From: Cyanobacteria bacterium P01_A01_bin.123
GTDB lineage: Bacteria > Cyanobacteriota > Cyanobacteriia > Phormidesmidales > Phormidesmidaceae
Assembly (NCBI GenBank): GCA_039815185.1
Contig: JBCBZT010000040.1
Location: 8,070 to 72,069 of the forward strand
Length of the DNA: 64,000 bases
Reading direction: 5' to 3'
The position numbers and the translations under genes are program-made. The first letter of the stretch is position 1. Each line of letters opens with the position of its first letter. This document shows positions 40,828 to 40,960 of this stretch, one piece after another. The notes under the pieces are model-generated. The model saw only the letters and a program-made list of their open reading frames with translations, ran no database searches and was not told where the DNA came from.

Positions 40828-40960
40828 TCAACCCTCTCTTCCTTGCTAGATACGGGCTCGAAGCCCAGGCGATTGTTCGAGTTACTAGAATTGAACAGGT
40901 GTGGCGACCCAAGCTTTTTTCCGGTTTCATGAACCAAGGGGGAGACGGTCTGCCACACCT
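40828..40960 (-). ncRNA. putative IS110 bridge RNA
   Basis: Two stem-enclosed internal loops; one holds ACAATCGC and CAAG, matching the element's own end junction; the other holds TCTCCCCCT and AAAAAAG, matching C-tract/T-tract REP arms. Confidence 0.82.

Follow-up and report, generated by a model that had tools for sequence, protein, structure and literature searches.

A compact predicted bridge RNA gene in an IS110-family insertion sequence within a cyanobacterial host repeat

Bridge RNAs are, to our knowledge, the only known single RNAs that specify both DNA partners of a recombination, and they are under development for genome writing. The bridge RNA of IS621 from Escherichia coli (Durrant et al. 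2024, PMC11208160; Hiraizumi et al. 2024, PMC11208158) is 177 nt long and opens with a 5′ stem-loop at about nucleotides 1-33. This stem-loop is invisible in the structure and non-essential; removing it weakens binding and causes a slight drop in recombination (PMC11208158). ISCro4/IS622 from Citrobacter rodentium (bioRxiv 10.1101/2025.05.14.653916) is a recombinase relative of solved structure with the same bridge RNA architecture, whose 5′ stem-loop adds slightly to activity. Here we analyse a stretch of 64,000 nucleotides (the window) from the genome of Cyanobacteria bacterium P01_A01_bin.123, in which positions 40960-40836 of the minus strand very probably encode the bridge RNA of an IS110-family insertion sequence that appears intact (40971-39838) and would act by an IS621-like mechanism. 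RNA-guided IS110 recombinases are a known kind of system; the window adds a compact member, its activity predicted from sequence, at a half-matched host-repeat site. Positions below refer to the minus strand of the window unless stated otherwise.

The window element and IS621 encode the same two protein domains. In both, the left end holds the RNA, ahead of the gene; the RNA is built from modules of stem, internal loop and hairpin, with the target module preceding the donor module. A one-base linker follows the left guide, the 7-nt right guide ends in AG and is followed by handshake bases, and the core is CT. IS621 re-forms a promoter spanning its core upon excision (PMC11208160); the predicted −35 and −10 boxes of the window element would likewise come together only at the circle junction. 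In each case the natural target is a host palindromic repeat, the REP elements for IS621 (PMC11208160), and since such repeats are reportedly also targeted by ISPpu9 (PMC12288879) the biological novelty of the locus is modest. Unlike IS621, the window element has no room for a 5′ stem-loop, and its RNA is only about 125 nt long. Its donor module measures 46 nt, compared with 68 nt in IS621 (PMC11208158), its left target guide is effectively 5+2 nt rather than 9 nt, the bases of its left donor guide expected to pair with the core are unconserved, and the system is known from sequence alone. ISCro4/IS622 differs from it in having the 5′ stem-loop (positions 1-34) and an enterobacterial host.

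Uncharacterised relatives were found in a metagenome-assembled genome (MAG) of Halomicronema (locus L005, 85% amino acid identity), in Acaryochloris marina MBIC11017 (L008, 72%) and in many Dehalococcoidia MAGs (for example L010, L017 and L060, around 55%). They share with the window the TGTAT left end, the ACA(A/G)T(C/T)G-CT right end and a compact RNA that begins 9-15 nt inside the element, and they differ in guides and insertion sites; the left guide of the A. marina element is the same as that of the window and its right guide nearly so. The Halomicronema element also differs by an insertion of 24-25 nt in the donor guide. IS110-like transposases annotated as ISMno7-type on Methylobacterium nodulans plasmids, a label under which only the protein was compared, show around 52% amino acid identity over 96% of the protein. 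Neither Acaryochloris, nor its accession, nor "Dehalococcoid" gave a match in the text-readable part of the PMC11208160 supplements. The locus is offered as a clean, readable example from a marine cyanobacterium: together with its relatives it forms a comparative set whose sequences reveal the length of the guides, the use of the core, the handshake bases and the promoter at the junction.

Architecture and covariation of the RNA

The predicted bridge RNA (40836..40960, about 125 nt, both ends being predictions) comprises a target-binding loop, a 15-nt linker and a donor-binding loop. In the whole fold a 13-bp stem, interrupted by one bulged A, leads into an internal loop that carries a 4-bp hairpin; after the linker come a 3-bp stem and a second internal loop, again with a 4-bp hairpin. 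The stem of the target-binding module (40897..40960) is formed by 40960-40952 and 40950-40947 with 40909-40897, leaving A40951 bulged; within it AGGTGTGGC at 40960-40952 pairs with GCCACACCT at 40905-40897. The internal loop holds the left target guide TCTCCCC-CT (40937..40945; TCTCCCCCT at 40945-40937), whose core-proximal TCCCC tracks the flanks in the clade. It is followed by the hairpin GGTT (40935-32)/AACC (40926-23) and by the right target guide AAAAA-AG (40914..40920; AAAAAAG at 40920-40914), which would pair with CT-TTTTT. The handshake position of this loop is the C of an invariant AGC, followed by T (40912..40913).

The donor-binding module (40836..40881) is closed by CTC (40881-79) and GAG (40838-36). 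Its left donor guide, ACAATCG followed by C-CT (40867..40876), equals the right end of the element plus the first core base, and ACAATCGC at 40876-40869 recurs at 39844-39837. An initial sequence-only reading of this DNA had equated the whole of that string with the right end; the identity holds, and the last C of ACAATCGC already belongs to the core CT (39837-36). The inner hairpin GGGC (40866-63)/GCCC (40857-54) lies within GGGCT-TCG-AGCCC at 40866-40854. The right donor guide CAAG (40845-42) and the handshake G at 40841 occupy 40841..40845, and CAAG would pair with the core CT and the TG of the left end. All strings listed in the sequence-only reading are in place on the minus strand, except TCAATTCT, which is shifted by one base from a naive count. 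That reading closed the donor loop with an 8-bp helix between TCAATTCT at 40894-40887 and AGGGTTGA at 40835-40828, two G-U pairs included. The two segments do pair in the window; the helix lies outside the consensus, in which the conserved closing helix is the 3-bp CTC/GAG, and among the homologues the closest relative alone (L005) shows a similar pairing (TCAA...TTGA), as judged by eye.

The fold was assessed by comparison. With 80 homologous loci, 81 loci including the window were available, and segments of 161 nt cut around a conserved anchor gave 53 distinct sequences. Of these 42 were aligned; L005, L007, L009, L011, L032 and L050 were omitted for insertions, truncation or oddity, and L023, L026, L037, L045 and L066 as near-duplicates. 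The RNAalifold consensus of the 42 distinct RNAs contains four helices and 24 pairs, 18 of which are changed on both sides. Paired cells make up 97.4% of 1008, compared with 84.0% in column shuffles (0/500 reach the observed value), and when the partners are slid by 1-3 columns only 37-51% are paired (maximum 51.2%). Compensatory cells number 144 as against 36.6 in shuffles; none of the 500 shuffles reaches the observed value of any measure. Helix 1 has 13 pairs, 11 of them with changes on both sides, and is 97.3% paired; for helices 3 and 4 the paired fractions are 100% and 97%. The short CTC/GAG helix shows a compensatory change from C-G to U-A in 7/42 RNAs. The window copy forms all 24 consensus pairs.

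Guides, insertion flanks and donor ends

Guides were read from each RNA by alignment columns, as the nine nucleotides before the loop-1 hairpin, the nine ending in the invariant AG, the 5′ side of the donor loop, and CAAG. Mapping of 68 loci left 61 for use, representing 56 distinct insertions and 37 distinct RNAs: L033 is without a left end in the sequence available, and L025, L047, L049, L052, L054 and L073 were dropped because their flanks were short or their right end was found only with 2-3 mismatches. For the 36 distinct RNAs other than that of the window, the guides agree with the flanks of their own element at 4.53/7 positions on the left and 5.03/7 on the right. Against the flanks of other elements the values fall to 2.40/7 and 2.14/7, and 0/10,000 permutations reach the observed sum. 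The sequence-only reading had named a failure of guides to covary with targets in homologues as what would count against it; the covariation is found.

The signal is specific to position. Left-flank positions 3-7 agree with the guide in 37-51 of 55 insertions, compared with 11 and 21 at positions 1 and 2; cross-pairing gives a background on this side of 0.21-0.38 for positions 1-6 and of 0.73 for position 7, where the base is almost always C. Right-flank positions 1-5 agree in 49-53 of the 55 insertions over a background of 0.27-0.39. The outermost two positions on each side are near background. As the signal is limited to five bases on each side of the core, the effective target is N5-CT-N5. 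The longer left guide originally proposed for the window is thus retained in its five core-adjacent bases, which track the left flank in this clade, and not in its outer two. The proposed correspondence with the IS621 guide layout agrees in guide order, CT core, one-base linker before the hairpin and 7-nt right guide, and is confirmed by the covariation of guides and flanks. The A. marina element, the nearest of the relatives with this left guide (72% amino acid identity), is inserted at TCCCC-CT-TTTTTAC, a site that fits its own guides at 5/5 proximal left and 7/7 right positions.

Two further observations concern individual insertions. In a Gemmatimonadota subgroup (L055, L056 and L072) the left guide ends in AT, and two of the three insertions have an AT left junction, possibly a natural non-CT core; the right junction is still CT by the boundary rule used. 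About 30 nt upstream of the left end in some Dehalococcoidia copies (L017 and L020) stands a second short target with a left-end fragment, ...CGTTCGCCCT-TGTATCTTGG..., which may be the scar of an earlier adjoining insertion.

On the donor side, a run of 7-8 nt in the loop repeats the terminus of the right end in 75/81 loci when up to one mismatch is allowed, and each of the variants ACAATCG, ACAGTCG, ACCGTTG and ACGGTTG agrees with the right end of its own element. Since donor ends hardly vary within the clade, this match is one of identity and contains little covariation. CAAG is complementary to CT and to the TG that opens the conserved TGTAT left ends; its AAG is invariant among the 42 RNAs and the preceding C nearly so. 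Handshake guides are a concept from the IS621 work (PMC11208158). The first handshake base of the target loop complements donor position 7 (G) in 39/39 RNAs; being invariant, it does not amount to covariation. The first handshake base of the donor loop complements target position 7 in 36/39 RNAs, three of them A:T pairs. There is no support for the second handshake position, with Watson-Crick complementarity in 15/39 and 3/39 RNAs.

The donor guide is interrupted in some related sequences. In L005 the insertion of 24-25 nt lies within the left donor guide (L005:1420-1450), and the right end is still ACAATCG-CT. Contigs from an unrelated marine metagenome (run X3) carry a 24-nt insertion at window positions 40871-40873 and end at two different right flanks. 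This is the position of the L005 insertion, so the interrupted variant has spread.

The element, its compact layout and its insertion site

The insertion sequence is 1134 bp long (40971-39838), with its left end TGTATTG starting at 40971 and its right end ACAATCG closing at 39838. Among the homologues, left ends begin with TGTAT (rarely TATAT or TGTGT) immediately after a dinucleotide that is almost always CT, and right ends are ACAGTTG or ACAATCG immediately before CT. The junctions in the window read ...AAAGTCCC-TT/TGTATTG on the left and ...ACAATCG/CT-TTTTTTAGGGGG on the right (slashes mark the element boundaries). The right core CT (39836..39837), assigned from the sequence and by comparison with homologues, is found in 55/56 distinct insertions. 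The left core TT (40972..40973), where the guides and the homologues specify CT, belongs to a position that is CT in 53 insertions, AT in two and TT in that of the window. We also considered a right core TT at 39836-35, with the right end closing at ACAATCGC and the left end at 40968; this placement is excluded by the 80 homologous right ends.

The recombinase gene (39846..40802; 318 amino acids and a stop codon) encodes a DEDD (RuvC-like) domain (PF01548; 7.4e-23, 81.5 bits, cutoff 29) and a Tnp domain (PF02371; 8.5e-22, 77.8 bits, cutoff 21.3). A longer frame from TTG at 40967 appears among the open reading frames; the homologues align from the ATG at 40802. This leaves a non-coding left end of 169 nt, from 40971 to the ATG, and 8 nt beyond the stop codon. 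The domains, the long non-coding left end and the core dinucleotide at both junctions are features of the IS110 group, whose junctions have a core dinucleotide instead of inverted repeats and a duplication. A full-length alignment joins residues 7-313 to the transposase of IS621 (chain 8wt6_A, E 8.4e-48), and the ISCro4 recombinase 9t56_A also matches (E 2.3e-46). The GID, EATG and KTDTxDA motifs, whose columns we take to be the catalytic residues of the IS621 papers, and the serine column of ESG/DSG are retained in the alignment to 8wt6_A. S241 is the IS621 residue named in PMC11208158.

Only 11 nt separate the start of the target-loop stem (40960) from the outermost base of the left end (40971), and six of these 11 nt form the predicted −10 box, so no 5′ stem-loop can fit. 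This space and the geometry of the junction promoter bear out the earlier suggestion that a 5′ hairpin is missing. The predicted −35 box TTGACA (39851..39856), a consensus sequence, overlaps the final recombinase codons, and the predicted −10 box TATTGT (40964..40969) matches the consensus at 4/6 positions. When the junction of right end, CT and left end is computed, the two are separated by a spacer of exactly 17 nt. The promoter is predicted to form only on the circle junction, with a start about 7 nt past the −10 box at ~40957, in the first pairs of the target stem; no sigma-70-like site was found in the integrated context between 39700 and 41200. A −35 box with at least 5/6 matches stands at the same position in 24/40 RNAs, and in 14/15 of the compact class.

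This compact layout, with 9-15 nt before the first alignment column, is seen in 15/37 distinct related RNAs; the others have 27-104 nt, and some of these long-form relatives fold a leader hairpin (L080, −18.3 kcal/mol; L033, −13.1 kcal/mol). Compactness is thus a feature of a clade of cyanobacteria and many Dehalococcoidia and not of the window element alone. A clade with no 5′ stem-loop and a shorter donor module provides naturally minimised scaffolds to test, with an RNA of about 125 nt and a protein of 318 amino acids.

The guides of the window element specify the target TCCCC-CT-TTTTT and the donor ACAATCG-CT-TG. At the occupied site the right half-site is exact, CT and five T matching at 5/5 positions and both core bases, a score reached by 1.8% of mismatched pairings. 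The element sits in a host repeat, whose left part (40974..41030, ...CCCTCCTTAAAAAAAGGAGGG-loop-AAAGTCCC) aligns with family copies and whose right part (39805..39835) begins with TTTTTTAGGGGGATTTAGGGTAGAG.... When the flanks are joined, with NN at the core, they align with nested palindromes elsewhere in the genome, on contigs C16, C19 and C32. The form of the repeat is GATCCCCC..CCCCCTT-AAAAGGGGG-loop-TCCCCCTTTTT-AAGGGGG..AGGGGGATC, and the insertion point is the exact boundary of C-tract and T-tract in the 3′ arm of its inner hairpin. The preferred target put forward in the sequence-only reading, the C-tract/T-tract arm, is upheld: the guides fit this arm better than the occupied copy does. 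Its broader phrase, that the RNA is programmed against the repeat family, needs to be put modestly, as the family is small (five copies by strict pattern and a few more by eye) and the target also occurs elsewhere. The 12-bp target is found four times in 8.09 Mb, as against about one expected from genome size at 50% G+C, and also in terminator-like hairpins outside the family. The segment 39780-39816 is present at two further places in the genome (L003 and L004).

No contig with an empty site across 39400-41400 was found among the contigs of four DNA runs. One contig in run X1, the probable source run, joins 39857 to 40866, skipping 1008 bases from the gene end to the donor loop, with a short side of 22 letters; either a deletion derivative or a misassembly across the two 8-nt copies of ACAATCGC could account for it. 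The same genome contains two adjoining weak recombinase matches (G000:C113:178303-178960; 41% and 30% identity to residues 204-312 and 94-203), representing a second, distant IS110-family gene or fragment. It also contains a solo left-end remnant of a related element (L002, G000:C9:111561-111616), which reads CT/TGTATTGTTGAA. The remnant has the 5′ strand of the target-loop stem, a left guide TTCCCCT-CT, the inner hairpin and a right guide, both guides being unlike those of the window; it lacks the 3′ stem strand as well as the donor loop and the gene.

Proposed mechanism, contrary evidence and alternatives

By analogy with IS621, the element would leave as a circle. Joining of the right end, core and left end would set TTGACA 17 nt from TATTGT and create a promoter that fires from the base of the target stem, about 7 nt downstream. 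The resulting transcript of about 125 nt, devoid of a 5′ stem-loop, would be bound by the recombinase. Its first loop would specify the boundary of C-tract and T-tract in hairpin arms, for example in the host nested-palindrome repeats, one of which contains the element. The second loop would pair with the donor junction through ACAATCG-C(T) and CT-TG, one handshake base in each loop would fit the other DNA, and the 318-aa DEDD/Tnp recombinase would swap strands at the CT core.

Several findings weigh against this account. The minimum free energy of the single window sequence (−50 kcal/mol, 173-nt stretch) is no more stable than that of shuffles (z = −0.12), so the window alone proves nothing and the argument for the RNA rests on comparison. 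The fold check proposed with the sequence-only reading was accordingly informative only in its comparative half, with compensatory changes in 18/24 pairs across homologous ends. No curated family matched on the minus strand in an Rfam scan of 39500-41300. In the donor loop, the clade does not conserve the two or three bases expected to pair with the core: alignment columns 108-110 (window 40869-40867) vary freely (CCT, ACT, AAC, TCA, CTT and others) while the donor core is constant, in contrast to the target-loop guides, which keep CT/AG. The left half-site GTCCC agrees with the specified TCCCC at 3/5 positions (3/7 on the longer guide), a score equalled by 44% of mismatched pairings, and the left core TT, the sole such case among the 56 insertions, matches one of the two core bases. 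A partial left fit had been anticipated, and these are its dimensions. The element is single-copy in its own genome (8.09 Mb in 133 contigs). An exact 14-bp match to the guides occurs once elsewhere, in a terminator-like hairpin on C18, and is unoccupied; 13/14 matches at four places, one of them a family copy on C32, are all empty. As these better-matching sites are empty, the window copy may be inactive or a recent arrival.

The mismatched left junction can be read in two ways. IS621 cleaves the top strands immediately past the core and then exchanges them (PMC11208158). By analogy, we infer that recombination of a TT-core target with a CT-core donor would leave the target core on the left and the donor core on the right of one daughter strand, which is the pattern here; a later C-to-T change accounts for the two cores equally well. 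Half-matched substrates are reported for off-target insertion by IS621 (bioRxiv 10.64898/2026.08.31.748434), and the window site looks like such an insertion. Our tentative proposal, in which we place a little less than even confidence, is that cyanobacteria and many Dehalococcoidia harbour a natural clade of minimal bridge systems, transcribed from the circle-junction promoter with a start right at the target-loop stem, with an RNA of about 125 nt lacking a 5′ stem-loop, a 46-nt donor module and target guides of 5+2 and 2+5 nt, and that the window copy records a half-matched insertion into a TT-core host-repeat site.

The RNA gene could be real and this copy an immobile fossil, left by off-target landing or by drift. 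This is a special case of the bridge RNA explanation and is compatible with it; we regard it as rather unlikely, although it deserves consideration. It would account for the single copy, the 3/7 left half-site, the TT left core and the emptiness of better sites elsewhere in the genome. A DNA search for the Acaryochloris (L008) element likewise gave one full copy in A. marina and one in the Halomicronema genome, and the 85% identical L005 has its donor guide interrupted by 24-25 nt. The state of the window copy speaks otherwise, with an intact reading frame, retained catalytic motifs, 24/24 RNA pairs and a donor guide still equal to the right end. Nor need the poor left match block excision, since excision of IS621 reportedly depends on recognition by the donor arm and not on target complementarity (bioRxiv 10.64898/2026.08.31.748434).

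It is far less probable that the structure is a mere 5′ leader of the recombinase mRNA, regulating translation or stability, with loops that resemble the ends and flanks and have no guiding role. The structure does lie immediately ahead of the gene, its last helix 33 nt from the ATG, and neither a terminator nor a separate RNA 3′ end was found before the ATG. A leader, however, has no need for loop bases that change with the insertion site, yet 0/10,000 permutations reach the observed agreement and the signal is confined to defined positions at the core; the architecture also agrees with the experimentally proven RNA of IS621. We give least credence to a functional transcript on the plus strand, an sX15-like small RNA antisense to the left end: sX15 (RF02234) is the sole Rfam match in 39500-41300 (plus strand, 40872-40973, 31.1 bits, E 0.0082) and Xanthomonas sX15 and asX7 offer a precedent of a complementary, plasmid-borne pair with both members detected (PMC3300014), but the score is far under the gathering score of 55, a symmetric hairpin matches on either strand, and the logic of guides and flanks, in which the left guide equals the top strand and the right guide complements it, fits a minus-strand RNA only.

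The sX15 and asX7 RNAs have ten homologues in Stenotrophomonas maltophilia (PMC3300014), and the sub-threshold sX15 match in the window covers the target-binding loop in reverse complement; the family may represent the antisense side of an IS110 bridge RNA locus.

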